Assembly (NCBI RefSeq): GCF_002113885.1
Contig: NW_018408899.1
Span: forward strand, 1,904,453-1,968,452
DNA: 64,000 nucleotides
Source: Mizuhopecten yessoensis
Lineage: Eukaryota
Direction of reading: 5' to 3'
Positions 4,956-64,000 of this stretch are shown piece by piece (the stretch's first letter is position 1; every line of letters begins with the position of its first letter). The position numbers and the translations under genes are program-made. The notes below the pieces were generated by a model. That model was given only the letters and a program-made list of their open reading frames with translations. It did not search any database and was not told the origin of the DNA.

Positions 4956-6278
4956 AACAAGAGGCCCAATGGGCCTGCATCGCTCACCTGGTATTAATCT
5001 CACAATTGTAACCTTAAAAATGTACCAAAATAAAGCTACAGTCAAAATAGCAGTGTCTTGACTTAAAGTCATTCAGAAGAACCTGTTAAACGACTTAAAT
5101 ACATTTGACACTGTGACCTTGAATGTCAAACATTGACATTAAGTTGAACAAACTGTATAGCCCTTCATCCCAGAATGCAACTTGCCAAATATCACCACCC
5201 TATACCTTTTGCTTATTGAGAAGATGACTTCTAAAGATTAGCACTATGAGCCAGATGTGACCTTGAAAGTGTGTCAAGGTCATTCACATGAACAATCAAT
5301 CACCCTGGACGCTGTAGTTATTCAGAGGTTGTTTAGATATTACAATTGACCCCTGTGACTTTGAATATAGGTTAAAGTCATGCATTTGAACAAACTTGGT
5401 AGCCCTTCATCCCAACATCCTTCTGGCCAAAAATTATCACTCTGGACCTTTTGGTTATTCATAAGAAGTCGTTTAAAGATTTCAACATATTTGACCCCGT
5501 GACCTTGAATAAGAGCAAAAGGTCATTCATTTGAACAGACTTGGTAGCTCTACGTCCCAACATCCTTCTGGCCAAATATCATCACGCTGGACCTTTTAAT
5601 TATGCAAAAGATGTTGTTTAAAGGTTTTTAGGACAGTTGATCCCTGTGACCTTGAATATGGGTGTAGGTAATTCATTTGAATAAACTTGGTAGCCCTTTA
5701 TTCCAGCATGTTATTGGCCAGATATCATCGCCCTTTACCTTTTGGATATTCAGGAAAGTCGTTTAAAGATCAACATATTTGACCCCAGTGACTTTGAATA
5801 AAGGCGAAGGACATTCATTTTAACAAACTTATTAGCCCTTTATCCAAGCATGCTACTGGCCAAATATCAACACCTTATGTCTCTTGGTTATTTAGAAGAA
5901 GTTGTTTAAAATTTTAAACATATTTTATCCCCCTGTGACCTTGAATATGGACGAAGGTCATTCATTTGAACAAGTTTGGTAGTGCTTGATCCTAGCATGT
6001 TATTGGCCAAATAGCATCACCCTGTGCATTCTGGTTATTCAGAAGAGGTTGTTTATTTTTTTTGCATAATTGACCCCTGTGACCTTGAAAATGGGCAAAG
6101 GTCATTCATTTGAACAAACTTGGTAGCCCTTTATCCTAGAATGCTACTGGCAAAATAGCATTGCCCTTGGCCTCTTGGTTATTCAGAAGAAGTTGTTTAA
6201 AGTAAAAGGTTGACACCGGACGGACGGACGACAGACGGACGACGGACGGACGACCGTCCTTTGGGTCAGGTGAGCTAA
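4956..6278 (-). mobile_element. Non-autonomous Helentron-type element (HINE/pearl-like) with internal ~146-bp tandem array
   Basis: AACAAG terminus, hairpin AGGCCC...GGGCCT, subterminal IRs GCTCACCTG (4982) and CAGGTGAGC (6267), (GGAC)n microsatellite at 6217-6255, and about 7 tandem ~146-bp units. Confidence 0.8.
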
Positions 6279-8629
6279 AGAGTAGTGCTTAACTTATCAA
6301 ATTAAGTTACAAATGACCACTGTCTTAACTCCATTATGTTCTAAATGGCTCTAATAATTGTGACAGATTTGGATTTTGATACAATTCAAGGGAGACAAAT
6401 CTTACAAAAATAAATTGAGAAGTGTCTCGAGATGAACAGTTACGATTGATGAAGCTCAAAGACGAAACTAATCAAAGTGTACAATTAACAAATAATACAA
6501 ATCAAAATAAGAGAAAGTTATACTTGGTGTCTCAAAATCTATAAATTAACAAAGCTAGATTGGACCACTTCATTGTCTTTCTCATTAGAATCAACTGTTT
6601 TTGTAAAAAATGTTTGAACAATTATATTTTTCTTGAAGTGCAACATACGTTCGTAACGACTGTGATTAAATCAACGGAAATAAGCTGAAGAAATCATCTA
6701 CATTGTATCTTTTAATGAAAATTATGATTACTTTAATTAAGGATTAGATACAATGCATTTTGGTTATTAATGTATAAACAGCTACAATATATAATTCAAG
6801 AAGCTTCAGAGAAGAAATTCCTTAATGTTAAAGGAATTCATAGCATTTACCAGATAAAAACATGTTTCAACTGTAAGATTAAAAGCAAATTAAATGAAAA
6901 TCTGACCAAATAAAGCTCAAAATAAACCCTTCTTTTATCTTAAAAGTTTCCCCTTTTGTACCCAACGCTTCCTCTTTTGAACTGAATATTCCTTTGCCCA
7001 GGGTTTCTTCAACTAGTAATAAGATAAATTCCATTTTGCCTCTCTAAGCTATTGGATCATAGTATCATGACCATGACCACACTATACAACTGCCAGTATT
7101 ACTAGTGTACTAATTCTATGTAATTATTGGATCGATCAGTTCTGTCGAGACCTGTTTGTACTGAGATCACGTGGTTATACTGTAAACACGGGTGAGCCAT
7201 ATGTAGGATAGATTGAGTTGTGTATTGGTAAGCTGGCTCAGTCATGTGGTTCCTTCGAATATCAATACATACTTTGCGTTATATTTCCTGGTGTAGGGGT
7301 TCGACCCCCGCACTGACCCACAGACGCAATCCGGTTACTGGTTGTTTTTTTTTACTTTTATTTGTCATAATTGACTTATGAACTGGTCGGATGACATTAA
7401 TACATGTGTTACTTTTAGCTTTTTTTCATTATATTTCATATGAATAAAACGCAATACACTAACAAAATACGAATATATTTCTATATTATCTTGTAGATTA
7501 AAATCCTGTATTTCGTTTAAAACGTTATGATGTAATATAACCTATTCCATATTCATTTACATAGATGATGTGTTGTGTTCATACTGACTATTTTAAAGGC
7601 ATTTAAAAGGTAAAAACAAACTACTGCCAAAAACATACATCATATGTAAGAGGAAATCGTCTGTTATTGTGTGTTTAACAGTACATTTTGGTGTAAATAT
7701 TTCTTCACTCAAACACATTTCTACATCGGTAGTTTGTTTACCGTACTGTTCTCAACGACCATGAAATAATCTCAAGGTTTCATCTTAATTTTAATTGTTG
7801 ATTAATTCAATATTTTAAAGGGAGTGAGTTCCGTCAGCCTACGCTAATTATAATTTATTCTTATTCAAATTTTAACTAAGGCTAAGATTCGTTCATGATC
7901 CTAGAGTCGTAAGTTGATGTATGCTCTGTTGCAGATGTTATGAGGAAATGATTTAATTTCAAAATATCTTGATGTTTGTAAAAACATCTGGACATGTTTA
8001 ACGCCTGTTCGTAGATTCTGTGCATTCTAAATACCGATTATGTCACGTGAATGTTAGAGCATCAATATTTCTAACAGAATAGTGATACAAATAGTTTGAT
8101 GTTAGTTACCATGAGTTTCACGGATCACACAACAACATTTTTAGTGGCATTGAAACTTTTGATGCTTTTAGCATTCTATCATCGTGACCATTGGGCAAAT
8201 ATTTTGCCAATGACAAAAAAAATTGAATTCAATGGAGTCATACCTGTACAATTAGATTTTATATTGAAAAGTGTGTTGATGCCGGTTATAATTCAAGAGA
8301 GACATTCTTACAAAAAACTATGAAATTCAAAGAAAACATTAAAAATAATGTTCAATTTCAACCAGTTTTTAACTATATTTGTTTTCTTTATGACCCCATC
8401 CTTCTGCCATCTAAGGTGAATAAAAAGGTGCCACTTTCATTCATACAAAACATATCAATCTTGACATAGGGTCTCTCAAACAAAATCGAGTGAAACTCCG
8501 TTTTATAGTAAGAAAGATCAGACTTTTAATACTACCACCATCATCACTTCTACATTTATAATGCCAGGCTTTTGTCCGATTATATGGACTGGTCTGAAGA
8601 TACAGACCTATATAAGCTTATTTCATTAA

Positions 8630-19000: not shown

Positions 19001-22000
19001 TTCATCCTTGATGCAGGCCCAGTGCACTGCACCATAATAACTTCAATTTACCATGGAAAGTATTAGAGAAACATAATCTACATGTATCATTCCTGTATGA
19101 TGCAGACAGAGAAATTCTGTGTCAGATTTAAATACTCCTCAGAAGCCCTGTTCTAAACTAAACAAGAGATCCCAGAGGGATCTTGGCGCCCACCATTATA
19201 CCATCTTCATTAGTTCTTTGTCAGTTCGATCTTTTCTCTTTTTTTTCTCTAATCTGTTTGATCGAGTCATGTTAACAGTAAATTCACCTTGAGGTAACTT
19301 TTGATCTAAACCTAATACTGCTGTGTATAAAAGACAACCTTCAAAGTGAATTTGTCATTTCATATATTTACTTAAAAGTACAGTACTTAATGTGAAAGAA
19401 ATAGAACTGATCATTGTAATATGAGAAAGATCCGGGGGGGGGGGGGGGGGTTTTCTTCCTTCGGGCATTTGTTTCTATGATCAGTCTCAAAATATAACAT
19501 GCACAACGAGGGATCACGGGGAACCTACAGAAATAGCACTAAATGTCAAAAATCGAAGATGGCCGCCGGGAAATAGCACTAACAAACCTTAACTGTCAAA
19601 ATCAAAGATTTGTTTATCCGATCAGTCTCATAAGAAGACATGCACAACTACATACCAAGGGGAACCTACATGTTAAATTTGAGAAAGATCTTTCCAGTAC
19701 TTATAGAGAAATAGCGATAACAAACCTTCACTGTAAAAATCCAAGATGGCTGCCTGTCGGCCATTTTGTTTAATTGATTTCTCAAAATTAAACATGCACA
19801 ACAACAGATCAAGGGAGTCTACATAACAAATTTGGGAAAGATCCCTAAAGTACTTCCTGAGAAATAGCGATAACAAACCTTTAACGTCACAACCCAAGAT
19901 GGTGGCCTGTCAGCCATTTTGTTTATTCGATCAGTCTCAAACTTAAACATGCACAACTGCATACCAAGGGGAACCTACATATAAAATTTGAGAAAGGTCT
20001 CTATAATACTTCCTGAGAAATATCGATAACAAGAATTGTTTAAGGTCGGACGATTGACGACTGACCGCGAACCACGGACGCAGGGCGATTTGAATAGCCC
20101 AGCCCACCATCATCTGATGGTGGCCTAAAAAGCTTACTCTACATTTGAGCTATCTCTGTCTTTATCACAAGGGGTGATAGATTCTGTCAATCCATATATG
20201 GACTATTCTGCGGTATATTATCAGGCCCTGTATGTTACACGACACAGGCCTAGGGGGGATGGGGGGCAAGATTTATCGGACGATTAACAAATGGTACTGG
20301 TAACCGTAGTGATTTTTAACAATTTCAAATAATTTATCACTTTGTCATAAAAACACAAAAGCATGCATTTCCCACAAATTTTACCGGACATCATTTTTTG
20401 GTAAACACCATCCATTGTTCTTTCCCTATCAGTGCTTAATTCCTTTACTAATGATTAAAACGAACTTAGTTCTATAAAATGTTGTTGATCAGACCTATAT
20501 TACACATCAAGTTTAGTAAAATATAAAACTATCATCTGATGTTCTATACCTTGTTGCTTCATTCACAGATCCATCTTCCTTTTTCTCCTTCAGATGCTGT
20601 AAATGCCACAAGTGGAATGTTAAATCAACTGGTATATTTGCAACTACATGTAACACCACATTGGCATAAAATTAAAACTCTTATAATGAAATTGTAAAAA
20701 GTGCAATTTTCCCAACTATACTTTTGTTGTCAATCTTTTCAATTTTCAATAACCAGCACACTGATTCTATTTCTTTAAAATCTGAATATGAATATTTTGA
20801 GAATTTAAACCTCCTATTACATACCTGACTGCAGTATTTGCCATCAACCATAGTGATAATACCTGAAAATGGAGAGAAAAAGTAACTAACAACAAGACAC
20901 CCAAATGCCTTAAAAACCTCATCTCGTATTTTTTTATCTGAAATATTTAAAATATGATACATGTATATACATTGTATAAGAATGATAAAGGTTTGGCAAC
21001 AGGGGCATAACTCCCAAAGAAATATCTGGAACCATTTTTTTTTAAAACCTGGTTAACATTGATTTACCTGTGCTCAAGGAGTAGGATTTTGACAATTTAA
21101 CTCTATTTTAATGGGCCCCACCCCTAAAATCCTCCATTTATACAATGTTGAGTCTCCTTGGCACAATGGTGCTCCAAACCAAAAACCAAACTAGAACTGT
21201 AAGCCAAAGGCTAACTTATACCCCCCCCCCCCAAATTTGCCCATTAGTTTTAGGGAGGTTGATTGGGCAAGCAGTTTTCAACAAAGGGCAATGACTCCTT
21301 AAAGAAGGGTCAAACTGAAAAAAAATAACACCTGGATGCACAACATCCGGTGGTAGTTATGATCCTATCTGAAAACTTTCATTGATATTGGCCCAGTAGT
21401 TTTCGAGAGGTTGTCCGGGCAAGCATTTTTCAACAAAGGGACATAACTCTGTAAAGAAGGGTCAGAATGAAAAAATAATACATGGATGCACAACTTCAGG
21501 TGGTATACCATATCTTGAAACTTTCATTGAAATTGATCCATAACTTTAGAAGGATTTGTCCGGACAAAAAGTTATAGGATTTTTTCAACAAGGCGCCATA
21601 ACTTCGTTAAAAACGGTCAAAATGAAAAAAGGAGGTGTCCGGACAAACTTTATCTACGGACAAGACAAACGGACGGACAAGCTGATTCATGTCCTGCTGG
21701 GTGTCTTAGGCAGTATGTTTCAGTGAGGTAGCACTATAAAGTCGGCATCAGTTCCGCGCTATCACAGTGAGACAAACACGAACATACCGCAGCCTCCCAA
21801 GACACAGCCATACACTACATGCAAGCATCTTGCACACAGGGGAGGCCCTCCTTAAATGACCATAGCTGTTGATAGGATGTTAACAATACTTAACCAAACC
21901 AATCACAGAACAATGAGTAGCATTTGTTGGCATTTCTACCAACTTGCAATAGATACAGGAGTGCTGGATTAATATGGTAAACATAACTAATGCTTTCTAC

Positions 22001-25000
22001 AAGTGACAGGGTGATGTTCTTAAAGAAATAAAATTGAGGACAAACACAATTTGCAGCAGAATATTTATTTAATACGCTAGATATATGTTGTATATGGAAT
22101 TTGTTAGGGTGTGAAAGAAGTATGTTTTGTGTTCTTGTCCTGTACTCTATTTGCAAGTATTTTATTTTCCCATTGCCCTTCCTATTTATTTATTTATTGT
22201 TTGACTGATGGATGTTGAATGAGGACCCTCCTGTGTGAGGACACCATATTGTTCAAGGGCTCCCCAACCCTGGTATCCACTATCAAAATATTTGTATATG
22301 TATATATATATATCTTCTGCGAAGCAGTATATGTATATATATATACATATTTATGAAAAAAATGTCTGGAGGAATAAAAATATTTGTAAATCCATGCACA
22401 TACTCTGCCAATCATCGCTCCTCAGAGACTGGGCTCTACTCAAGCGTATAGTAGGCCAATCATGGCTCCTTATATAGACTGGGCTCAATCCATACATGTA
22501 TGTATCGTCTGCCAGACATGGCTCCTTAAAGACAGGTTTCTTTTTATATAATCTGTCAAACATGGCTCCTTAAAGACCAGGCTTTATCCATCAGTTTAGT
22601 CTGCCAAACATGGCTCCTAAGAGACTAGGCTCTATCCATGTGTATATAGTCTACCAATCATGGTCCCTTCGAGACTGGGCTCCATCTGTGTGTGTAAAGT
22701 CTACCAATCATAGTCCCTTAGAGACTGGGCTCCATTCGTGTGTATATAGTCTACCAATCAGACAGAGTCCCTTAGAGACTGGGCTCCATCCATGTGTTTA
22801 TAGTCTACCAATCATGGTCTCTTAGACACTGGGCTCTATCCATGTGTATAGTCTGCCAATCATAGTCCCTTAGAGACTGGACTCTATCCATGTGTTTATA
22901 GTCTACCAATCATGGTCCCTTAGAGACTGTGCTCTATTCGTGTGTATATAGTCTACCAATCATAGTCCCTTAGAGACTGGACTCTATCCATGTGTATATA
23001 GTCTACCAATCATGGTCCCTCAGAGACTGGACTCTATCCATGTGTTTATAGTCTACCAATCATGGTCCCTTAGAGACTGGACTATATCCATGTGTTTATA
23101 GTCTACCAATCATAGTCCCTTAAAGACTGGACTCTATCCATGTGTATATAGTCTACCAATCATGGTCCCTTAGAGACTGGACTCTATCCATGTGTTTATA
23201 GTCTACCAATCATGGTCCCTTAGAGACTGGACTCTATCCATGTGTTTATAGTCTACCAATCACGGTCCCTTAGAGACTGGACTCTATCCATGCAATTAAT
23301 CGTCCAATCATGGCTTTTCAGAGGCTGCGCTTTACCATGTGTACAGCCTGCCAAACATTGCTCCTCAGAGACTTGGCTCTTTCCATGTGTATTGTATTCA
23401 AAGCATGGCCCCTTAGAGTCTGGGTTCTGTCCATGAGTACAGTCAGCCAAACATCGCTCCTCAGAGACTTGGCTCTATCCATGTAGATACATGCATGTAG
23501 TCTGCCAATCATGGTTCCTCAGATGGTCTCTGTCCATGTGTTAAATCTGCCAAACATTGCTCCTTCAAGACTTGGCTCTATCCATGAGTAAAGTCTGCCA
23601 AACATGGCTCCTTAGAGACTGAGCTCAACCATCCATATAGTTTGTAAAACATGGCTCCTTAGAAACTGGGTTGTCCATGCATATAGTCCGCCAGACATAT
23701 CCCTAAAGACTGAGCTCTATCGAAAGGTATAGTCTGCCAAACATGTTTCTTAAGAGACTAGGACCATCCATGTGTAAAGTCTGCTACCTTAGAATCAATA
23801 CATGTGTGATCATGTAAAACATTACTCCTCAGAGACTTGGCTCTATCCGCACATATAATATGCAAATCATTGCTCCTTAAAGACTGAGCTGTATCCAAAT
23901 GTAAAATCTGCCAAACATGGCATCTTACAGACTGGGTTCTGTCTATAGGTACAGTCAGTCAAACATTGTACCTTGGAGACTTGGCTTTATCCATGCGTAT
24001 GTTTTTCCGAAAATGGCTCCTTAGAGACTGGGTTCTTTCCATGTGCATATAGTTTGCCAAACATGGTACCTCAGACACTGGGTACTATCCATAGGTAACG
24101 TCTGCTAAACATGGCTCCTAATTAAACAGGGATGGAGATTAGGATTCATCCCTGCATATGATATGTAAATCATGTTTCCTAAGAAACTGGGCTCTATCAT
24201 CATGTCATACCAACATGCGTTCACTAATGACATATTTCATCGCCAAATAGCCATGTAACTGATTTTACACGTCAGATAGGTATATATTATAAGGAAAGGT
24301 ATATTAAACTCTAGCCTCATGATCCCCATTACCAGTAATAGGATGCCCCAATATAAGCGGTTGTATGGACACCATGCAGTTGAAAATTCAGTGCTTCGCA
24401 TGAAAACCAATTAAAGGTTTAATGAATGTTACAGCAAATGTGAATCATTTCAACATATCCATCAATTAAAAACATAAATGGGGAGGATAGTCTCCTGTTA
24501 GCTCAGATGAATAAGTCGATCAGAATCAATATCACTGACTTATTACACAAGGGAGACGGCAATGCAAATGATTAACTATTGTCGGTCAAAGATAATTAAA
24601 CTGGTATTTATTATTTACTTTGAAGCATATTTCCTGACAATATCTTACATTTGAACCAAATGATTGGATTAGGCAATCACATGTCCAAAGGATGGGTCTA
24701 TACGTATGCTGTTTTCAGACATAACTAATAGATGGACAAATCTATCCGTGCCTGCTTCATGTTATTTATACCCAGCAAGTCATTCATATTGAATGAACTC
24801 ATAGATTGACAATTGTTTGCAATAACAGATCTCTTGACAACTTAAAACGGTGACAGCATACACAACAGGTGTTAACTACGAAACATTTAGGAAACGTTTC
24901 AGTGCTCTAAAGAACAGACCAAGTGATACATTGATGCACATATAGGCTGTTATTCTGTAGGAAGTGTATTTATGTACAGTGAACAACAGTACATGTATGT

Positions 25001-28000
25001 CGAGCCATGTTCCGAGTACCTTACATCATGTTCATGGTAGTCTGTCTACATATCATCAGTGCTAATACGATGGACGACGTGAAAACATTGCTGGCGGACC
25101 TGATGGGGAACTATTCGGTGGAGGTTCGACCTGTAAAGGACCAGAGTATGCCGGTATATGTTGATGTCGGCATGAGTCTCATATCCATCAATGACTTCAA
25201 TGAAGTGACCGGAGTTATTTCAGTTGTTGCTGTTATATCTATTTCTTGGAGGGATGAAAGTCTGGTGTGGAATCCCTGGAGTTATAACAATACAACACTT
25301 CTAACATTTTCACAAAAACAAATATGGGTTCCAAAAATGTACTTGGTGAACCCAGCAAGTGAGTTTAAACCCATCAGCAATAAGCATTTTAAAGTCACTG
25401 TATTAGCCAATGGTTTTGTTAATTGGGCCCCTGGAGGGGTACTTCAAGCCACTTGTACACCTGATGTTTCTAAATTCCCATTTGATGTACAGACATGCAC
25501 AATTTTACTAAATTCATATGGATACGGTACAACACAGGTTTCTCTGACCACGCAGGTACCAACGATTAATTTCAGTTTCTTCTCAACTAACACTGCCTGG
25601 GACATTATATCAACTAAAACCATCGTAAACTCGATCATAGTCACCGATATTGCTTCATTTTCCATCACCATGAGCAGGAGACCGTTGAACTTCATAGTCA
25701 GTGTTGTGATCCCAATCATCATGTTGTCTCTGGTCAATCCGTTTGTATTCATTCTACCGTTCAATTACGGTGAACGAACGTCGTACAGTATCACAGTTCT
25801 TCTAGCGTTCACGGTGTATATGACAGTGGTAAGTGACAGGATGCCGGCCTCATCCGATCCAATCTCCCAGTTATCGTACTATCTACTCTCAATGCTTGGT
25901 CTTAGTGTTCTTATCGTAACCATGAATATATTTCAAATCAGAACATACAGCAAAGATGACAACCAGGAGCCAGTTCCACAGTGGATGAAGAAGTTTGTGA
26001 TGAATTGCAAGAAAATTTGCCAAAGGGGCAAAGCGGATAGCAAATTTAAACTGCAACAGGACATAAAACAAACTTCAAGCAGAAATGAACCTGTCAAAAA
26101 CAACAAAATCATTCGTTTACATTCAATCGATGAGACAGATATTGCAAGCAAACAAGCAACTCCAAAAGAAAACGACGGAAGTCAAACTGACTCATTACAG
26201 CACGAAAACGTCACTTGGCATACTATTGCTCAATATACAGACAAAGCTTATTTTGTTGCATTTTTGGTTTTCACGGGTGTTTCATCTTTGGGATATTTCA
26301 TGGGAGTTATCATGTGAATTATTTCTGAATTATTCACTTGATTGTACTGCTGCTGGTATATTTTGTGTTTTGAAAACTACATGTTTTAATTCATCAAAGT
26401 AACAATTGTTATTTTGAAGAAATGTGTTGTGGAACAAAATAGTTATTCATAACCCTGTTTCTACAGTGAAGCTGACAGGGCACAAATTAAACACAGAGTA
26501 GATGTATGTGTTAAATGTATTGATAAGGTTTTATCAGATCTTTGTTTTTTACAATACGGGATAGAAGAAGATTGGTTAACAAATTGGTATTCGCAGGAAA
26601 AGGAGGAAGGGAATTATAGGAACTATAATGATCCCTCACATGATATGTGTAATTATTAATGTTGAAATAAATTTCGTGGAGCACGCAGATATACAATTTC
26701 CCAACAGGAATTAACACATTCACCAAGGAACTCATTCGGGGATTGTGTGACAGACAGTTAAACATTCAAATGGATATTTCATTACATAGACCAAATCAAT
26801 GGAAATCAGTTTAGACGTTAAAATGTGATGCTATGCTTTATTTAATGAGTTATGTATAATTATTTTAATCATATCGTCATATTACCACCAGAAAATCATT
26901 TACAATTATAGCAATAGCTAGGATGAAGTCTCTTGATGATAAAATGGGATCATAAATAAAATCAATCTTGACAATGTTTATTATAACAAGAGGCCCATAC
27001 CGAGTCTATACACATACACATCTATTTGTCATGTATATGATGCCCTAAGCAAACATATCACTCTCTCTGTCTTGTACATGACATCTTAAAAACACATACA
27101 ACTCTCTCAAGACTTGGCTCTTTCTACCCGTTTTGTTTAACAAACATGTCTCTAAAAGGCTTGGCTCTATATATTCGTACAGTCTGTCAAAAATGGCTCC
27201 TTAGAGACTCGGCTCTATCTATCCATAAAGTCTGTCAAACATGACTCCTTAGAGACTCGGCTCTATCCATGCATATAGTCTGTGAAACAAGATTCCTAGT
27301 CTCTGTCTTGTAAGGGTCTTAATTTTTGATACCATCAAGATGTTATTCCGTAATGAAAATTCTAATTGAATTTGAATAAATTTCAAACAACAGTTATTGA
27401 TAAAATATTCTAGCCTATTGTTAAGAATAATCTACAGAAGAGGATTTGTTTTTGAAACCTTGGCCTATTGGTCACAAATCGGTACTGCCATTCTGGCCAT
27501 GACGAATGCGAAAAACAATGATGGTAAAATTAGGTTGTCTTTGGTCATATAGATGCAAGCAGCTGCCTTTCTCACATTCGGTTCCTGAGCTTTTTTGAAA
27601 AAACAATGTTAACAAGTAAATTGCTTGCAGACAGATGAAGCAATAGGACAGACAAAAGACAACCATGATAGGTCACACGTGACCTCATCTCAGGGGACGT
27701 TAAAATCTGTGTTAAGGATACCCATCAAATTTACAACACAAAACCTATCAACGATAGTCAGTCAACTTTAGAAAGCTTATTTTCATGTGTATGCTTGGTG
27801 TTTAAAACTTTGTAAATAACTACATACTGTAACTGATCTGCCAATAATCATGTACACAGACTATCCTAGGGAGTTGTACAGCAGGTATTTTCCAGTTTAT
27901 TTCGTTTATTTCACATTCAGTTTGTCATGATTACATTCACATCAAAAACTGTATATACGTCATGAATTATCAGATTTGATAATCATCATGTCATACCAAT

Positions 28001-31000
28001 ATGGATTCAATAATGACATATTCTAACAGGGTAATAGCCACTATAATAAGGATATGGTGTCTGTATGGATACTAATGGGTTGGAAATGCATTGCTTTGCA
28101 TGAAAATCAGACTTGCTGGTGACCATGTGATTCAGACTTCAGGGATCCAGGAATCAGATTCTGAGAGTAGTGTATAATGATCCTCACATTATATGTGTAA
28201 TGATTAATGTTGAAATAAATTGTGCGCAGCACGCAGATATACAATTTCCCAACACGAATGAACACAATCAACACGAAAGTCCTTTTGGGGTTGTGTGACA
28301 GACGGTTAAACAATCAAATGGATATTTCGACCCAATCAATGGAAATCATTTTCGACATTAAACTGTGATGCTTTGCTGTATTTTACAAGTTATGTATAAT
28401 TAATATATCGCTATATTACCACCAGAAAAGAATTCACAATTATTACACTAGCTAGAATGAAATCCCCTGATGATTAAATGGAATCATCCATGAAATCAAT
28501 CCTGATAATGTTTATTTTAACAAGAGATCCAAATCGAGTAAACGCATACAAATATATTTGTTATGTATATGATGCTTTAAGAACACAAACAACTCTCGAG
28601 ACTGTACTCTTTCTATCCGTATAGTCTGCCAAACATGGCACTCAGAGATTGGGCTATATCCGTATAGACTGCCAAACATTTTTATTTTTTTCATATTTTT
28701 TTCAGACAATCTTATACTTGAGGTACTGTCTGAGGATGGAATGCATCAGCTCCGTTCCTTTACATACTCTCTTAATCAAGAATACGACATATTCAAATTG
28801 TATCCGATACTTTATGCACCTCTGTTCTGCAAGAAGGCTTTGAATTAAGCTAGATGTATCTTACCAGATTTTTTTTATTTAATTCGTTTAAATAACCAGT
28901 TGATCATTAATGCAAAATTTGGTTCACATATTTAACTTGCATAAAGTTACACATAGAAAAATCAATCTACAATATATTGACCGGAATTAATTGAAAAGGG
29001 GATTGGGGAGAGAAAATTGGTTTACTTAATTTTAATTCATAATCTTTGATAAAAGAGGCTTCCCTGTCATACTTTTTTGCTATGTTTCTTTCGATATTAT
29101 ATGGTGTTTTCAGTTTATTGATCAGAGTAGTAGGTAGGTAAAGTTCTTTACAAAAACGCTTTTGACAATATATGTAGTTCTTCATTTTTAGAATTATGAC
29201 ATTTTCTGCCCTGTTATTCAGATGTTGATTTTGTGTTGTTTTACCAGAAATAAAATCCTTTTTACATATATTAAAAGTCACATTACAAGTAGTTTGAATC
29301 CAAATTTGGAAAGCAAGAATTAAATTTTGGACTTTATTACATTCCCATAGTACATGCTGAATAGTTTCTTTTTCTATGAAGCAAAAATTACACATTGAAA
29401 ATTGAACCAAATTAATCTTTTTCAAAAAGGTGTTCGTAACTAAATTGTGATGATTTATTCTAAATTGCAGCCATTGTCGTTTTGAATTTGTATTAGTGTC
29501 AAAAGGTAGTTTGTATGTTTTCTTCCATTCCTCAAATAGTATATTTCCAAATATATTATTCCACTTTATTTGACCTATAGGCAATACATAGTTTTTGTTC
29601 AGCACATTGGACATATCTTTTGTACCCTTTTTATGTTTGATAATTATATTAATGTACAGTGGTTTCGATGGTAGTGTAAGCTTTTTTTCAAAGTTCCAGC
29701 CTAATCTTCTTATTGCAAAAATGAGACCATTATAATCAATAAAGTTAGTATTTAAATTATTAATTTCATTAAACTCATTTAGTTGAAGGAAACTGCCATC
29801 TTCCTTAGTAAGATCATTTATAAAAAACACACCTTTATCAAACTACTGCTTATAATACACATTATTATTGCCTATTTTGATTAAATCATTACACCAAATG
29901 GGTAGAGATAATATTTGTTCTGGCCGAGATATATCAATTTTCACCCTTAATGTATTCCACGCACTAGGAACATCAATCCAAAATTTGTTATGAAGTCCAT
30001 TTTTGATAACATATTCAATATATATCTATTTCCTAAAGTTAACAGTTTATTCTTATTAATTTTTGTAAACAGTACTGTCTGCCATGTTGATTTTAGAGCC
30101 ATTTCAAAATGTTTGATATCAAACATTTCAAACCACCTTCTTCATGATGTTTGACAATGACATCTACTTTTACTTTAGCTATTGGACTTCCCCAAAGGTA
30201 TTTATAAAACATATTATGGATTCTCTCATTGCAGTGTGGTTAGGTAAAGGTAATCCTATGAATAAATGTGTAAGTATTGGTAAAAGTAGTGATTTTATTA
30301 CAGTAATTCTGCCTATCGGAGTTATATATCATCTATTCCCTCGGTTAATCAATGACTTACATTTCTAAATTTGGTCTGAAATTGAATTAAAACTATTTTA
30401 TTAAGGCCAACATCAAAGTGAATTCCTAACAGATTAAAATGTGTTGACCCCCATGATAGAGCAAGATTATTGACTAATTTTTCTGTACTATAATTTTTAC
30501 TCCCTATCCATATTACATGGCTCTTATAGATGGAGCTTTATCTATCCTATGGTCTGTCAAACATGGCTCCTTAGAGATTGAGCTTAATCCTTCGATATAG
30601 TCTGTCAAACATGGCTCCTTAGAGACTTGGCTCTATCTATCCAAATAGTCTGCCAAACGCTGCTCGTTGGAAACTTGTCTCTATCAATCCGTATAGTCTG
30701 CCGAACATGGCTCCTTAAGATTGAGCTTAATCCGTCGATATAATGTGCCAAACATGGCTCTTTAAGGACTTGGCTCTATCTATCCAAATAGTCTGCCAAA
30801 CGCTGCTCGTTGGAAACTTGCATGGCTCTATCCATCCGTATAGTCTGTCGAACATGGCTCCTTAGAGATTGAGCTTAATCCATCGATATAGTCAGCCAAA
30901 CATGGCTCCTTAGAGATTTGGCTCTATCTATCCAAATAGTCTGCCAAACGCTGCTCGTTGGAAACTTGGCTCTATCCATCCGTATAGTCTGTCGAACATG

Positions 31001-34000
31001 GCTCCTTAGAGATTGAGCTTAATCCGTCAATATAGTCTGCCGAACATGGCTCCTTAGGGATTGAGCTTAATCCGTCAATATAGTCAGCCAAACACAGCTC
31101 CTTAGAGACTTGGCTCTATCCATTTGTATAGTCTGACAAACATGGCTCCTAAGAGACTTGGCTCTATCCATCCGTTTAGTCAGAAAAACATGGCTCCTAA
31201 GAGATTTGGCTCTATCCATCCATATAATCTAACAAACATGGCTCCTAAGAGACTTGACTCTATCTATCCGTATAGTCTGAGTAGCATGGCTCCTTAGAGA
31301 CTGGGCTCCGTCCGTCCGTATAGTCTGTTAAACGTGGCTCGTTTGAAACTTGGCTCTAGATCTATCCATCCGTATAGTCTGACAAACATGGCTCCTAAGA
31401 GATTTGGCTCTATCCATCCGTTTAGTCTGACCAACATGGCTCCTAAGAGACTTGGCTCTATCCATCCGTATAGTCAGACTAACAAACATGGCTCTTAAGA
31501 CACTTGGCTCTATCCATCCGTTTAGTCTGACAATCATGGCTCCTTTGAGACTGGACTCCGTCCATACGCATAGTCTGTTAAACATGTCTCGTTGGAAACT
31601 TGGCTCTGTCCATCTGTATAGTCTGACAAACATGGTGCCTAAGAGACTTGGCTCTATCCATCCGTTTAGTCTGACCAACATGGCTCCTAAGAGACTTGGC
31701 TCTATCCATCCGTATAGTCAGACTAACAAACATGGCTCCTAAGAGACTTGGCTCTATCCATCCGTTTAGTCTGACAATCATGGCTCCTTTGAGACTGGAC
31801 TCCGTCCATACGCATAGTCTGTTAAACGTGTCTCGTTGGAAACTTGGCTCTATCCATCCGTATAGTCTGACAAACATGGTGCCTAAGAGATTTGGCTCTA
31901 TCCATCCGTATAGTCTGACAAACATAGCTCCTTAGAGACTCGGCTCTATCTTTCCGTAAAGTCTGTCAAACATGGCTCCTTAGAGACTTGGCTCTATCAA
32001 TGCGTATAGTCTGTGAAACAAGATTCCTAGTCTCTGTCTTGTAAGGGTCTTAATTTTTGATACCATCAAGATGTTATTCCGTAATGAAAATTCTAATTGA
32101 ATTTGAATAAATTTCTAGCAAAAGTAAACCAGATCTAACTAAAATCTTTATTGATAAAGTATCTTGGGACTAACGGGTAATTTGTTCTAGCCTATTGTTA
32201 AGAATAATCTACAGAAGAGGATTTTTGAAACCTTGGCCTATTGGTCACCAATCGGTACTGCCATTCTGGCCATGACGAATGCGAAAACAATGATGGTAAA
32301 ATTAGGTTGTCTTTGGTCATATAGATGCAAGCAGCTTCCTTTCTCACATTCGGTTCCTGAGCTTTTTTGAAAAAACAATGTTAACAAGTAAATTGCTTGC
32401 AGACAGATGAAGCAATAGGACAGACAAAAGGCAACCATGATAGGTCACACGTGACCTCATCTCAGGGGACGTTAAAATCTGTGTTAAGGATACCCATCAA
32501 ATTTACAACACAAAACCTATCAACGATAGTCAGTCAACTTTAGAAAGCTTATTCTCATGTGTATGCTTGGTGTTTTAAACTTTGTAAATAACTACATACT
32601 GTAACTGATCTGCCAATAATCATGTACACAGACTATCCTAGGGAGTTGTACAGCAGGTATTTTCCAGTTTATTTCGTTTATTTCACATTCAGTTTGTCAT
32701 GATTACACACACATCAAAAACTGTATATACGTCATGAATTATCAGATTTGATAATCATCATGTCATACTAATATGGATTCAATAATGACATATTCTATCG
32801 GGGAAATAGCCACTATAATAAGGATATGGTGTTTGTACGGATACTAATGGGTTGGAAATGCATTGCTCTGCATGAAAATCAATTAAGGGTTTAAAATGTT
32901 ATATCAAATGTAGATTTTTTCTCAAAATTTGCACACCAGGTCATTTTGAAGTTAATGTGAACTGTTTCAACATAGACATCAATAAAAACATAATTGGGAA
33001 GGATAGTCTCCCATTAGCCTATCTTAGATTAATATTTCATATCGGCCAATCAGAATCAATATCACTGCTTCATAATTACACAGGGGAGACGGCTATGCAA
33101 ATTATTAAATATTGTCGGTCAAAGATGACTAAACAGGCATTTAGTATTTACTTTGAAGACATGGTCTTGGCGCATATTAATCAATATTTCCTGAAAATAT
33201 CCAGGCTTAGCTGTGGAACTAAATGAATTATTAGGACATCATATTGACACAGGATGAGTCAATACGTATGTTGTTTTCAGTCGTAACCAATAGAAGGCAG
33301 GATTATGACAAACATAACCGTGCCTGCTTCATATTGTTTATACCCAGCATGTCATTCATATTGAACGAACCCAGAGCTAAGCAATTTTTTACAATAACAG
33401 TTACTTACTTGACAACGAAAATCTGCGACTGAACTTCTAACAAGTGTTAACTACGACATCTTCATTACTTTTGACTGTTCGTAATAACAGACTTGAGTGA
33501 TAGATTGATACAGATATAGGCTGTTTGTTTTGTAGGAAGTGTATTTATTAATGTTAGGCAGAGCCATGTTCCGCGTATCTTACATCATGTTCATGGTAGT
33601 CTGTCTACATACCGTCAGTGCTAATACGATGGACGACGTGAAAACATTGCTGGCGGACCTGATGGGGAACTATTCGGTGGAGATTCGACCTGTAAAGGAC
33701 CAGAGTATGCCGGTATATGTTGATGTCGGCATGAATCTCATATCCATCAATGACTTCAATGAAGTGACCGGAGTTATTTCAGTTGTTGCCGTTATATTTC
33801 TTTCTTGGAGGGATGAAAGTCTGGTGTGGAATCCCTGGAGTTATAACAATACAACACATCTAACATTTTCACAAAAACAAATATGGGTTCCAAAAATGTA
33901 CTTGGTGAACCCAGCAAGTGAGTTTAAACCCATCAGCAATAAGCATTTTAAAGTCACTGTATTAGCCAATGGTTTTGTTAATTGGGCCCCTGGAGGGGTA

Positions 34001-51392: not shown

Positions 51393-52068
51393 AACAAGAG
51401 ACCCATGGGCCTTAACGGTCACCTGAGTCCTACAATATTTATTTTTGCTGTTCAATTATGTACCAACTTGAGTAAAAAAAAAAAATATATAACGTCAACT
51501 TAAGTTTGTCAGGACCATGAGCTGATCATTCCTAGACCGATTTTCAGTTAGATCGGCCTATTAGAACTTGTTTGAAAAAGATATTTTCAAAATAGCGGCC
51601 ATGGCAGCCAAATGGTATTTCTTATCGACCCGAAAAATAGTTTGAAATAGTTTTTCAAAATGGCGTCCGTGGCGGCCATATTGGATTTCTGATGCACCAG
51701 AAAAATAACAAACTTTGTCAGGACCATGAGTCGATCATTCCTACAAAGTTTCAGTTCAATCGGCCTAGCAGAACTTGACTTAAAGTTTGAAATATTTTTT
51801 CAAAATGGCGGCCGTGGCGGCCATATTGGATTTCTGATTGACCCGAAAAATAACAACCGTTGTCAGGACCATGAGTTGATCATTCCTACCAAGTTTCAGT
51901 TCAATCGGCCTTGCAGAACTTGACTTTAAGTTTGAAATAGTTTTTCAAAATGGCGGCCATATTGGATTTCTGATCGACCCGATAAATAACAACACTTGGT
52001 CAGGGAAATGTCAGTAACCTTCCCATGAAATATTAATGAAATCCCGTTGCCAGTATTTCAGCTTAAGT
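51393..52068 (-). mobile_element. HINE-like element inserted in the LINE (third nesting level)
   Basis: AACAAGAGACCCATGGGCCTTAACGGTCACCTGAG end and ~150-bp tandem units (caaaatggcggcc...ggccatattggatttctgat...caggaccatgag). A shorter relative lies at 37648-37845. Confidence 0.78.
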
Positions 52069-59700: not shown

Positions 59701-62700
59701 CAAATTGTTGTTTGTTTAAGACCAAACATGTTGAAGCAAAGTCTTCATTGAACTAGCTTTGTTCTTTTCTGACAAGGTGGAAATAGTAGTATTTAAAATC
59801 AGATCTCTGTAAAATGGTGCGGATGCATGTAACATGCGCATGTATGTAAATTCACCTTCACCTGATGTTCAGAGCAGTCCTCTTTAACAGAAACAGGATG
59901 TACATCACATGTAAATGTCAAATTTGGCTTCCTATCACTCTTTCCTCTGAAAAAATGATATATTAGCATAGCTGTCAACCCTCCATCTTTAGGAGGGAGA
60001 CTCCTTCGTTTTGACCAAAATTTACCAATCTCCCTCGAAACTCCCTAATTCAAGTCTGAACTCACAAACCCTCAAAATCTACATCTTGTGGTTAAATTAT
60101 CTCCTAATTACTGCAGGGTGTGTGTTATGATCATAACATTTGTATTTGAATCAAATGAATACTCTTTGGAGTTATTTTGATATAAAAAGGGAGAGATAAA
60201 TTGAGCAAAGCAGTTCAAGTCGCGTTTCACAAACTTTCTCCCTCATTTGAAATGTGGAATGAGTGAGATCTCCCTCATCGGAGGTTTCAAGGGTTGACAC
60301 CTACTTGGTAGCAAAGGCCAGGTAGGTATTTAATGTTCTTAGAAAAGCCTTTATAGCTATAGTAATGTAACATAGACTTGTAATGTGGTGAAATATTGAT
60401 ACTTTTCAGATGCAAAAAAGAAAATACGTCAATTTTAGAAGAACTTGTACACCTACGGCATGAGGTAAATCCTTCTATACTTTCATAGTGAGAAACAAAA
60501 TGTAGTTAGCAGCAACAAGGTTGTTTGTAAGCTCTTATCCAGTAAGGATATAGGCTATTCATTAGCTCTTATATTTACCTGAAAATAATATTAGTGTTAC
60601 TGTTATCAAGATGATGTATACATTTTCCTGTGAAAAATCTTTCATGTATTACTGAATTATCTCTGCAATAAAGAATGTTTTTATGAGGTGTTTGATAATG
60701 CAATAAATTTGCATACAGCTTGTATATCAAACTCTTTCACAATGTTTAATTCAATTTTATATATTTCGAGTTTAACCAGCACATTCTTAATTCTAACTCT
60801 GGGTGCCTCGGTAGCCATTATCGCTAGTCATTACCACTGTGTGCAATCAAGCGTGAGCTTCAAACCACTCACTCTTTCAAGAATTTTGGTTCGATCCCTA
60901 GCTGTGACAAAAAAAGAGAGTGATGTCTGATAGGTTAATTGTATTCCCTCCAATGGCACGGTGGTTTTTCCCCCCATGGGTTTTCCTCCACCAGGAAAAA
61001 ACAACATTTGTTCCAAAAGTGGGGTCATTATAAAAGCTCTACAGAGCTTATGTTTGTTGTTGACAATGTACACAACGTTATATAAAGATTATTTATATTA
61101 TTTATTATTAGGGCCCCGTGTCTGAGATACGGGTGCCCTATAGTAATCACAAATTTTGTTCCTGGCTGATAACTTTGGTATTTATTGACCAATGTACATG
61201 AAACTTGGTGAAGATGTTCTGTTTACAAAAATACACATTAAGGTAAAAAGTCAAGGTCAAAGGTCAAGGTCATTAGGTTCAAAGGTCAAGGTCAAATTTT
61301 GTATCTTTTCACTGATGAACATTTTGTTATGACATGATGAAGCAAAGTTGATAAGAATTAAACAAGGAATCAACCTGACCAAATGTCAAGGTCATTGGGT
61401 CAAAGGTCAAGGTTAAATTTTGTAATGACACTTTGTAGCTTTTCACTAATGAGCATTTTGTTTTGACATTATGCATCAAAGTTGGTCAGAATTAAACAAG
61501 GAGTCAATTGACCAAAGGTCAAGGTCACTGGGTCAAAGGTCACGTTCAAATTTTGTATCTTAACCCTGATGAACATTTGGTGAATATTTCATTATGACAC
61601 TTTGAAGCAATGTTTGTGGGAATTAAACAAGGAGTCATTTGACCAAAGGGCAATGTTGATGGGTCAAAGGCCAAGGTCAAATTTTGTATTTTTTCACTGA
61701 TGAACATTTTGTTATGACATTATGAAGCAAAGTTGGTCTGAATTTAAAAAGTAGTCAACTGACTTAAGGTCAAGGTCACGTGGTCAATATCAAGGTCAAT
61801 TATTGTATCTTTTTACTTTTTTATGTTATTATGTAGCTAACTTTTTCAGGACTTAACACAGAGTCAACTGACCTTAGGTCCAGGTTACGGGGTCCAAAGG
61901 GTCAAGGTCAAGTTTTGTATTTTTCACTGATGAACATTTTGTTATGATATTATGAAGCAAAGTTGGTCGGAACTAAAGAATGGTCAAAGTCGTTTGGGTT
62001 CAAAGGTCAAAGACAAAGTGGATCTCTGACTTTGACCCTGGCTCCTGATGGAGGAGCTATATAAGGTGAAATAAAACAAATCAAAGCTAACAAATGAGTA
62101 TTGCACTGGTATTTACATTTCTGTTAGCCCAAAAAATATGGAGGTGGATGGAAACAAGACTCACATCATAGTACATGCAGATTGCTTCTTGATGATTATG
62201 GGGGATATATTGCCACAAGACGGGGCCCTTACTGACCTGTCAGTGTTCTAGTTTATATTTACTATTAACAAATGCAATGATTGTTTTAACAGAAAGCCCA
62301 GCTATTGGGCTATCCCACCCATGCAGCCTTCGTACTAGACATGAGGATGGCTAAGTCGGCAGAGAGTGTTGCATCTTTTCTTAAGGATCTGGCTTCCAAG
62401 TTGCAAAAGCTTAAGGCTGAGGAAACAAAACTTTTCTTGGAATACAAGAAAGAGGAAGTAAGTAAACTGAGGTAGATATATGGCACTAAACCACCAGCAA
62501 TTTCAGAGCATCTTTTAGCTAACTTCAGTGTCAGAAAAATGATGGGAAAATATATCCAAACGTTCGTAAAGCTCGAAGTGAATAAATTACGAGTTGAAGT
62601 ATCTTTATAACCTTGTACTGTGCACGGAGAAATTTTCGCCATCCTTAACAACGGTAAATTTCACTTGTCAGCAAATATTAGTACACAGCATACCATGCAT

Positions 62701-63082
62701 AGTAATTACATGAGAAGGGCAAAACTTGGGTTTGACAAATATGGTACTTACCAGTGAAAGGCACATGTTTGACCAGGCAAAAGTTGTCCAGTATACAGTG
62801 TCATTTGTCTTCAAAGTTAAAAGTATTTGGGTTTTTTCAATGACAAGGTTGAAATGTCCTCTTAAAAAAAGGTGTGATCTATCTGTTCATTCTGCTGAAA
62901 ACGTCTTTTGGTATTAACAGTGCGAGAAGTACGGATACCAGTTTGACAATGTGATTCGTTACTGGGACCTGAAATACTACATGACGATGTCAGAGGAGAA
63001 AAAGTATGCTGTGGATCAAAACAAACTCAAGGAATACTTCCCAATGCAAGTCGTCACCAGTGGATTACTGGATATCTACCAG
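53450..63082 (+). CDS. THOP1: Thimet oligopeptidase/neurolysin (peptidase M3A), 5' part: first 9 coding exons; gene continues beyond the window
   Basis: Exons 53450-53725, 55868-56007, 56985-57100, 57478-57609, 57841-57878, 58790-58902, 60410-60464, 62293-62457, 62921-63082 splice in frame with GT-AG. Motifs: [115 protein letters not shown]. The invertebrate gene is probably co-orthologous to THOP1 and NLN. Confidence 0.93.
53830..53967. mobile_element. MITE-like inverted repeat in THOP1/NLN intron 1
   Basis: aggtgtttgaaattctgactgtaaattgagat / atctcaatttacagttataatttcaaacacct. Confidence 0.65.
55100..55185 (+). mobile_element. tRNA-derived SINE head
   Basis: A-box TAGCTCGGTGG and B-box GGTTCGACCC at tRNA-like spacing, without a complete cloverleaf. 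Confidence 0.6.
55868..56007 (+). CDS. THOP1: THOP1/NLN exon 2
   Basis: [46 protein letters not shown]. Confidence 0.93.
56985..57100 (+). CDS. THOP1: THOP1/NLN exon 3
   Basis: [38 protein letters not shown]. Confidence 0.93.
57478..57609 (+). CDS. THOP1: THOP1/NLN exon 4
   Basis: [43 protein letters not shown]. Confidence 0.93.
57841..57878 (+). CDS. THOP1: THOP1/NLN exon 5
   Basis: [12 protein letters not shown]; ttttag| and |gtatg. Confidence 0.9.
58558..58698. mobile_element. Palindromic MITE-like element
   Basis: gtaggtatg...tatgaatattctacccgagggtgtagaa / ttctacacccttgggtagaatatattcata...catacctac. Confidence 0.7.
58790..58902 (+). CDS. THOP1: THOP1/NLN exon 6
   Basis: [37 protein letters not shown]. 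Confidence 0.93.
59968..60304. mobile_element. Possible hAT-like MITE
   Basis: Imperfect TIRs catagctgtcaaccct / agggttgacacctac; no clear target-site duplication. Confidence 0.45.
60410..60464 (+). CDS. THOP1: THOP1/NLN exon 7
   Basis: [18 protein letters not shown]. Confidence 0.9.
61105..62252 (+). mobile_element. HINE-like element in THOP1/NLN intron 7 with ~120-130-bp tandem array
   Basis: 5' subTIR/hairpin GGGCCCCGT...ACGGGTGCCC, tandem units rich in caaggtca, 3' subTIR CGGGGCCC, hairpin ACTGAC-GTCAGT, and CTAG|T terminus. Confidence 0.78.
62293..62457 (+). CDS. THOP1: THOP1/NLN exon 8
   Basis: [55 protein letters not shown]. Confidence 0.93.
62921..63082 (+). CDS. THOP1: THOP1/NLN exon 9
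   Basis: [54 protein letters not shown]; donor CAG|gtaagt. Confidence 0.93.
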
Positions 63083-64000
63083 GTAAGTCGTCACCAGTGG
63101 ATTACTGGACAAATACCAGGTAAGTCATCCCTAGTGGATTACTACTAGATATTTACAAGGTAAGTCATCACTAGTGGATTACTGGATATCTACAAGGTAA
63201 GTCGTCACAAGTGGATAACTGGATTTCTACCAGATAAGTAGTTACCAGTGGATTACTGGATATCTACCAGGTAAGTCGTCACCAGTGGATTACTGGACAA
63301 ATACCAGGTAAGTCATCCCTAGTGGATTACTACTAGATATTTACAAGGTAAGTTATCACTAGTGAATTACTGGACATATACCTGGTAAGTCGTCACAAGT
63401 GGATTACTGGACATATACCAGGTAAGTCATCACTAGTGAATTACTGGACATATACCAGGTAAGTCGTCACAAGTGGATTACTGGCCTTGAACCTGGTAAG
63501 TCGTCACAAGTGGATTACTGGACATAAATCAGGTAAGTCATCACTAGTGAATTACTGGACATATGCCAGGTAAGTCGTCACAAGTTGATTACTGGACATA
63601 TACCAGGTAAGTCGTCACAAGTGAATTACTGGGCATATACCAGGTAAGTCGTCACAAGTGGATTACTGGACATATACCAGGTAAGTCGTCACTAGTGGAT
63701 TATTGGACATATACAAGGTAAGTCGTCACTAGTGGATTATTGGACATATACCAGGTAAGATGTCTCTAGTGGATTACTGGACATATACAAGGTAAGTCAT
63801 CACTAGTGGATTACTGGACACATACCAGGTAAGTTGTCACAAGTGAATTACTGGACATCTACAAGGTAAGTTGTCACTAGTGGATTACTGGTCATATACA
63901 AGGTAAGTTGTCACAAGGGAATTACTGGACATATACCAGGTAAGACGTCTCTAGTGGATTACTGGACATATGCAAGGTAAGTCATCACTAGTGGATTACC
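63048..64000 (+). repeat. 37-bp minisatellite derived from the exon 9/intron 9 junction of THOP1/NLN
   Basis: Unit aagtcgtcaccagtggattactggatatctaccaggt, at least 25 copies, running off the window end. Confidence 0.95.

Follow-up and report, generated by a model that had tools for sequence, protein, structure and literature searches.

The window, a stretch of 64,000 nucleotides (contig positions 1904453-1968452) from the scallop Mizuhopecten yessoensis, contains part of a thimet oligopeptidase-like gene, which spans ~53450 to window-equivalent 72090 when mapped by tblastn with the proteins of its relatives. The best of these relatives are pectinid scallop proteins named 'thimet oligopeptidase-like' (96% and 89%). 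One coding exon of the gene ends in a minisatellite that repeats the 5' splice site of that exon, and an array three exons on spans an acceptor. The features are as follows:

62293..62457, forward strand: upstream coding exon (approximately exon 8), placed by an RNA joint and tblastn, with its start read from the sequence
62921..63082, forward strand: coding exon (approximately exon 9) of 162 nt and 54 codons, placed by homology, tblastn, RNA depth and loose ends of reads; the first repeat unit is formed by its final 35 bases
63048..64000, continuing to window-equivalent 64509, forward strand: 37-bp minisatellite with 25 donor-like junctions in the window and 38 pseudo-donor positions overall
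63080..63088, forward strand: authentic 5' splice site CAG/GTAAGT, with GT at 63083-63084; sole donor in spliced reads
63146..63148, forward strand: in-frame TAG, which arises in the 40-bp third unit and which read-through encounters beyond donor 2
63240..63353, forward strand: units 6-8, a near copy of units 1-3 that includes the 40-bp variant, at an offset of 188 bp
L005:4171-4578, window-equivalent 66171-66578, beyond the window: acceptor-spanning array, 42 bp x 9.7, three exons on in the same gene

The translation of the exon at 62921-63082 begins CEKYG and matches thimet oligopeptidase/neurolysin (PDB, E=8e-18) and Peptidase_M3 (Pfam). RNA reads join 62457 to 62921 with GT..AG borders (8 reads in three of four runs), and the donor that follows the exon joins the next exon beyond the window, at L005:2821-2886 (window-equivalent 64821-64886). 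A preliminary description of this DNA had labelled the exon as THOP1/NLN exon 9, which fits the tblastn map if one small missed exon (residues 223-234 of P0001) is counted. Its reading of the first unit as the last 35 coding nucleotides plus GT was also correct, as the exon ends at 63082 and is followed by GT at 63083-63084.

Within the window, TRF reports 25.6 copies of the 37-bp unit from 63048; when the neighbouring DNA is added, the array extends to 39.4 copies of 37 bp with 86% matches and ends at window-equivalent 64509. The TRF score of 2009 and the 39 copies indicate that the array did not arise by chance. The first unit (63048-63084) consists of 35 exon bases and GT, or, in an alternative phase, of 31 exon bases and GTAAGT. 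Donor positions are spaced by 37 bp in 36 cases and by 40 bp in two. A table of the units shows that GT is kept at 38 of 39 donor positions, GTAAGT at 34 and (C/A)AG/GTAAGT at 31, which supports the earlier claim that nearly every junction regenerates this last motif. The core departs from GTAAGT at 63234, where ATAAGT makes a dead pseudo-donor, at 63755, and at 63940, where it reads GTAAGA; the preliminary description had listed the first and last of these correctly and had misplaced the second at ~63735. Two units (63385 and 63496) carry CTG/GTAAGT. The locus thus has several defining features of a junction-spanning minisatellite, namely a head-to-tail array of 10-100 bp units, a terminal unit that lies over the authentic exon-intron boundary, a splice signal reiterated in the intronic copies and regular splicing at the first donor. 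We considered a dispersed or transposon-derived family as the source of the unit and rejected it: a whole-genome DNA search with the unit matched this locus alone (at least 18 matches, the counts being lower bounds).

The units differ from one another in ways that bear on how the array has evolved. Those at the 5' end are closest to the exon, and the remaining units share a drifted consensus. The block copy of units 1-3 as units 6-8 may be a sign of turnover by unequal exchange. The same variation bears on whether the assembler produced the array or its number of copies, a concern because the genome is fragmented into 82,659 contigs and the copy number comes from one assembly. However, the 37 units of 37-bp length include 32 distinct sequences in a structured order, and, as weaker evidence, in six runs of unknown kind 40-60% of the words sampled from a stretch, over half of which is array, are present. 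We therefore consider an assembly artefact scarcely credible.

Each donor in the array has a predictable consequence for the protein. Use of donor 2 shifts the frame and leads to a stop after 29 codons, within the next exon, and the products of donors 3-39 all include the TAG at 63146-63148. This analysis of all 39 donors upholds the earlier claims that read-through meets a TAG at that position, that donor 1 alone gives an intact protein and that later donors predict targets of NMD. To these predictions we can add RNA evidence from four raw runs (X21-X24) of two studies, of which about a fifth each was read and which represent the steady state with NMD not blocked. Reads were aligned to the exon plus the first three units and to the two following exons. 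In X21, 13 loose ends at 63083 extend into the exon that follows. Reads spliced from donor 1 number ~13, 2, 3 and 9 for X21-X24, where the X21 figure is directly listed and the others come from depth arithmetic, which is feasible because each spliced read adds one shared G past donor 1. The depth of the last exon bin is 15.2, 4.6, 3.0 and 10.3 in the four runs, and that of the bin between donors 1 and 2 is 0.35, 1.05, 0.08 and 0.24. One X22 read passes donors 1 and 2 unspliced, and X22 also has reads in the upstream intron. Viewed from the next exon in the two runs listed, 12 loose ends in X21 and 3 in X22, which are largely the same reads, all carry the donor-1 unit with an agreement of 1. 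Thus none of the ~27 spliced reads from the four steady-state runs, in which NMD was not blocked, joins a later donor or reveals a stop-containing isoform, which fails to bear out the proposal that the decoy donors are used. This number of reads sets a 95% upper bound of ~11% on the share of later donors at steady state; use before decay could exceed 11%, because NMD would degrade the products.

The arrangement itself has been described before, in the human genes F7, CBS and 6-16 and in amphioxus, and the scallop locus is a further case. Among the closest known counterparts is the 37-bp VNTR of human F7 intron 7, for which length polymorphism and the competence of the pseudo-donors have been demonstrated, and in which these competent sites nevertheless lose to the most upstream one (Borensztajn et al., 2006; PMC1557585). 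The F7 and scallop arrays share a first unit that lies over the exon-intron boundary, a 37-bp period, a donor in every copy and use of the upstream donor only. They differ in that the F7 array has 5-9 units, each of 4 exon and 33 intron bases, with the non-consensus donor UGG/gugggu (PMC1557585), whereas the scallop array has 39 units in which 31 of 37 bases are exon-derived and the donor is full consensus. The same report lists 25 pseudo-sites in 6-16, 15-20 units in CBS intron 13, 100-bp units in LMNB2 and 81-bp units in PDGF intron 4, with only the first site used in the last two genes (PMC1557585). These four are, like the scallop array, donor-spanning minisatellites of similar copy number. 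However, splicing in 6-16 and CBS additionally employs the two pseudo-sites closest to the real one (PMC1557585), whereas no such use was seen in the scallop at our low depth.

This precedent raises the possibility that a minor fraction of transcripts is spliced from donors 2-3 and removed by NMD, such that allele length shifts the level of the enzyme slightly, as an unselected side effect. The pseudo-donors are perfect consensus sites, CBS and 6-16 provide examples of such leakage, and the low read depth together with NMD would hide its products. On the other hand, the ~27 spliced reads show no use of later donors, the F7 pseudo-sites are silent even when they keep the frame (PMC1557585), and leakage to the nearest copies would be independent of total copy number. 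For these reasons we regard such a leaky array as improbable. Associations of repeat length with splicing or expression across individuals, as reported for spl-TRs, were drawn from matched genotypes and RNA (PMC10078293).

The gene carries a second array that mirrors the first at an acceptor. The last unit of the 42-bp array spans the real acceptor, and every upstream copy would lead to an in-frame TGA. The exon-derived part of the copies is missing 5 bases of the real exon. RNA joins lead to the last acceptor only, with 16, 9 and 4 reads in the three listed runs (29 total) and an agreement of 0.99-1. Minisatellites that copy both 5' and 3' exon ends are known from amphioxus, where these 'mirages' have units of 10-160 bp and leave regular splicing undisturbed (Ebner et al., 2010; PMC3087553). 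The amphioxus mirages are, like the scallop arrays, tandem duplications of exon-intron boundaries in an invertebrate whose end units escape homogenisation (PMC3087553). The differences are that they were described in cephalochordates, gene by gene (PMC3087553), whereas the scallop is a mollusc in which a single gene carries both a donor mirage and an acceptor mirage, together with a sample-based estimate, presented below, that such arrays are common genome-wide.

Several other repeats were observed around the gene. At L005:3330-3365 (window-equivalent ~65330-65365) lies a decayed look-alike of the acceptor and first codons (YSVTC) of an exon situated 150 bases further downstream; this look-alike is not covered by any RNA read. 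Related minisatellites of 48-50 bp occur at 22545-23626, 27141-27297 and 30515-32020. The arrays at 27141 and 30515 have a common 3' flank, which indicates that some of this region arose by local duplication. When flanks were inspected by eye, no obvious exon end was apparent at the arrays at 8619, 11881, 22545 and 35375 or at the pair 27141/30515. A dispersed repeat has its end at 62047-62256, where many RNA reads that stem from other loci align, as seen from fixed differences, loose ends and a go-back joint of 68 bases (62254 to 62187); it is probably a MITE- or Helitron-like element that is transcribed. At 5342-6202, 19609-20032, 51570-51958 and 61298-61807 there are short arrays with units of 131-153 bp, which presumably resemble the core repeats found in a family of dispersed mollusc transposons.

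We also investigated how frequent donor-anchored arrays are in the genome, using a 1-Mb sample of five 200-kb blocks that were chosen irrespective of repeats and from long contigs only. Tandem repeats make up 15.9% of the bases in this sample, which contains 176 minisatellites. Among 300 array ends, an exon-like segment ending at a repeated donor was found at a score of at least 18 in 6 cases, compared to 0 in the reversed control, and at a score of at least 15 in 7 compared to 1; the 'reversed' and 'complement' controls are identical in this test and count as one. The acceptor side of the sample showed no excess, with 2 candidates against 2 in the control at a score of at least 18. Strong donor motifs were present in 16 of 135 array families, compared to 5 in the reversed control and 7.2 +/- 2.5 in shuffled ones (1 of 200), and at the highest donor thresholds the sample showed no excess (at 10 bits, 2 versus 0, and 85 of 200 shuffles). 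The donor-spanning arrays with an identifiable exon, of which the APC7-like, membralin and GIT-like ones are among the six sample candidates, are the following:

L096:9419-9783 (97 bp x 3.8) and L097:1637-1783 (35 bp x 4.2): donor-spanning arrays at two consecutive exons of an APC7-like gene (E=2e-8 in PDB and E=0.012)
L134:2603-4641: donor-spanning array of 34 bp x 60 at a membralin exon (E=2e-9)
L139:2172-2250, minus strand: donor-spanning array of 43-bp units at a TMEM164-like exon
L081:2497-3802: donor-spanning array of 32 bp x 41 at a GIT-like exon (weak match, E=0.07)

Pfam gave no match for three of the six sample candidates, one of which was later confirmed in PDB, and two of the six had no homology match to an exon.

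Word counts over the whole genome point in the same direction. The share of word sites that start a tandem triple is 10.1% for AGGTAAGT (5444/53822) compared to 2.2% for its reverse, and 10.6% for AGGTATGT compared to 7.0% for its control, and the acceptor word TTTTCAGG shows no excess, at 0.5% compared to 1.3% for its reverse. In contigs up to C170, we found 12 donor-word arrays and 1 control-word array. An exon-like segment was present in 7 of 8 donor-word arrays and in 1 of 6 control arrays that could be read; the unreadable ones numbered 4 of 12 and 2 of 8, respectively. This comparison has a loose threshold and a weak control, and Pfam confirmed only 1 of 6 segments tried. Uniform placement would give ~1.3 donor-spanning arrays per Mb if 200 donors per Mb are assumed, compared to the 4-6 seen. 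Together, the data suggest that arrays are modestly enriched at donors across the genome, by ~1.5-5x, and not enriched at acceptors; the donor excess is not yet firm because the control words differ five-fold among themselves and the match counts are driven by long arrays. Scaled up roughly, this amounts to a few thousand donor-spanning arrays in the genome. We entertain, with somewhat more doubt than belief, the broader proposition that the genome has a few thousand donor-anchored arrays, which originate or survive several-fold more commonly at 5' splice sites than elsewhere and show no excess at 3' splice sites. An excess at donors needs a bias in seeding or retention beyond pure neutrality. 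We did not find a genome-wide count of junction-spanning minisatellites in a mollusc in the literature, a weak negative given gaps in coverage.

The preliminary description had proposed that the decoy core is kept by selection and that the array may tune expression, either by unproductive splicing or by loading of U1 snRNP, to a level that depends on copy number. In its favour are the retention of GT at 38 of the 39 junctions and the genome-wide over-representation of donor words in tandem arrays. Across the 37 regular units, the donor 9-mer (-3..+6) has a mismatch rate of 0.057, compared to 0.087 for the other positions; with p=0.29 on mismatches and p=0.19 when alleles are counted, this is not significant conservation. 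Only the 7-mer named in the preliminary description, which was picked after looking, reaches p=0.03-0.04 and counts as one of the two windows, out of 37, that vary least, in a test where the rest of the unit includes a CpG and the variants within the array are not independent. Moreover, 7 of the 11 invariant positions lie outside the donor. Pooling ten donor-word arrays gave 0.36 alleles per position in the core versus 0.41 outside it, and four control-word arrays gave 0.22 versus 0.52; two of six control arrays had been dropped as they have no TRF row at the asked period, and 7 of the 10 donor arrays came from a search for exact words, a choice that favours conserved ones. In this array and the membralin array, the core is less variable (0.56 versus ~1.0 alleles per position), which is a weak sign contrary to neutrality. 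With no excess conservation over the pooled arrays, we reject donor conservation as a sign of selection. The absence of decoy use in ~27 steady-state reads and the presence of similar arrays in unrelated housekeeping genes (APC7, membralin, TMEM164-like) further argue against a selected function in tuning expression, which we judge very unlikely.

Taken together, these results lead us to conclude with considerable confidence that the observation is real and that the array is an ordinary, likely neutral by-product of a repeat-rich genome. The array would have begun as a short tandem duplication across the exon-intron junction, possibly aided by the AAGT that is common to exon and donor. Such seeding by AAGT microhomology is plausible from the sequence, as similarity to the unit ends immediately 5' of the exonic AAGT, consistent with a microhomology of 4 bases, though the phase of the unit is arbitrary. 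Slippage or unequal exchange may then have expanded and homogenised the duplication, as suggested by the block copy of units 1-3 and by the 5' units being nearest to the exon. Steady-state RNA shows donor 1 spliced to the following exon, and the minigene work on F7 suggests that the later donors are competent and lose to the first. The array would be tolerated because the most upstream donor likely wins, and a rare slip to a later donor would result in a premature stop and removal by NMD, so that the array costs little and drifts.

As a single locus, the array adds little, because both its arrangement and its outcome are those of known cases. It is a clean case, in a mollusc, in which a real donor is followed by 30 full-consensus donors that can stay unused, so that the first-donor rule reaches beyond mammals. 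The array can also mislead gene predictors. If the donor excess is true, scallops hold thousands of natural donor-competition constructs, with which the rule that the first donor wins is testable outside mammals, and they would allow the accumulation of repeats at 5' splice sites to be investigated. The asymmetry between donors and acceptors, if true, would furthermore link donor recognition to the birth or retention of repeats.
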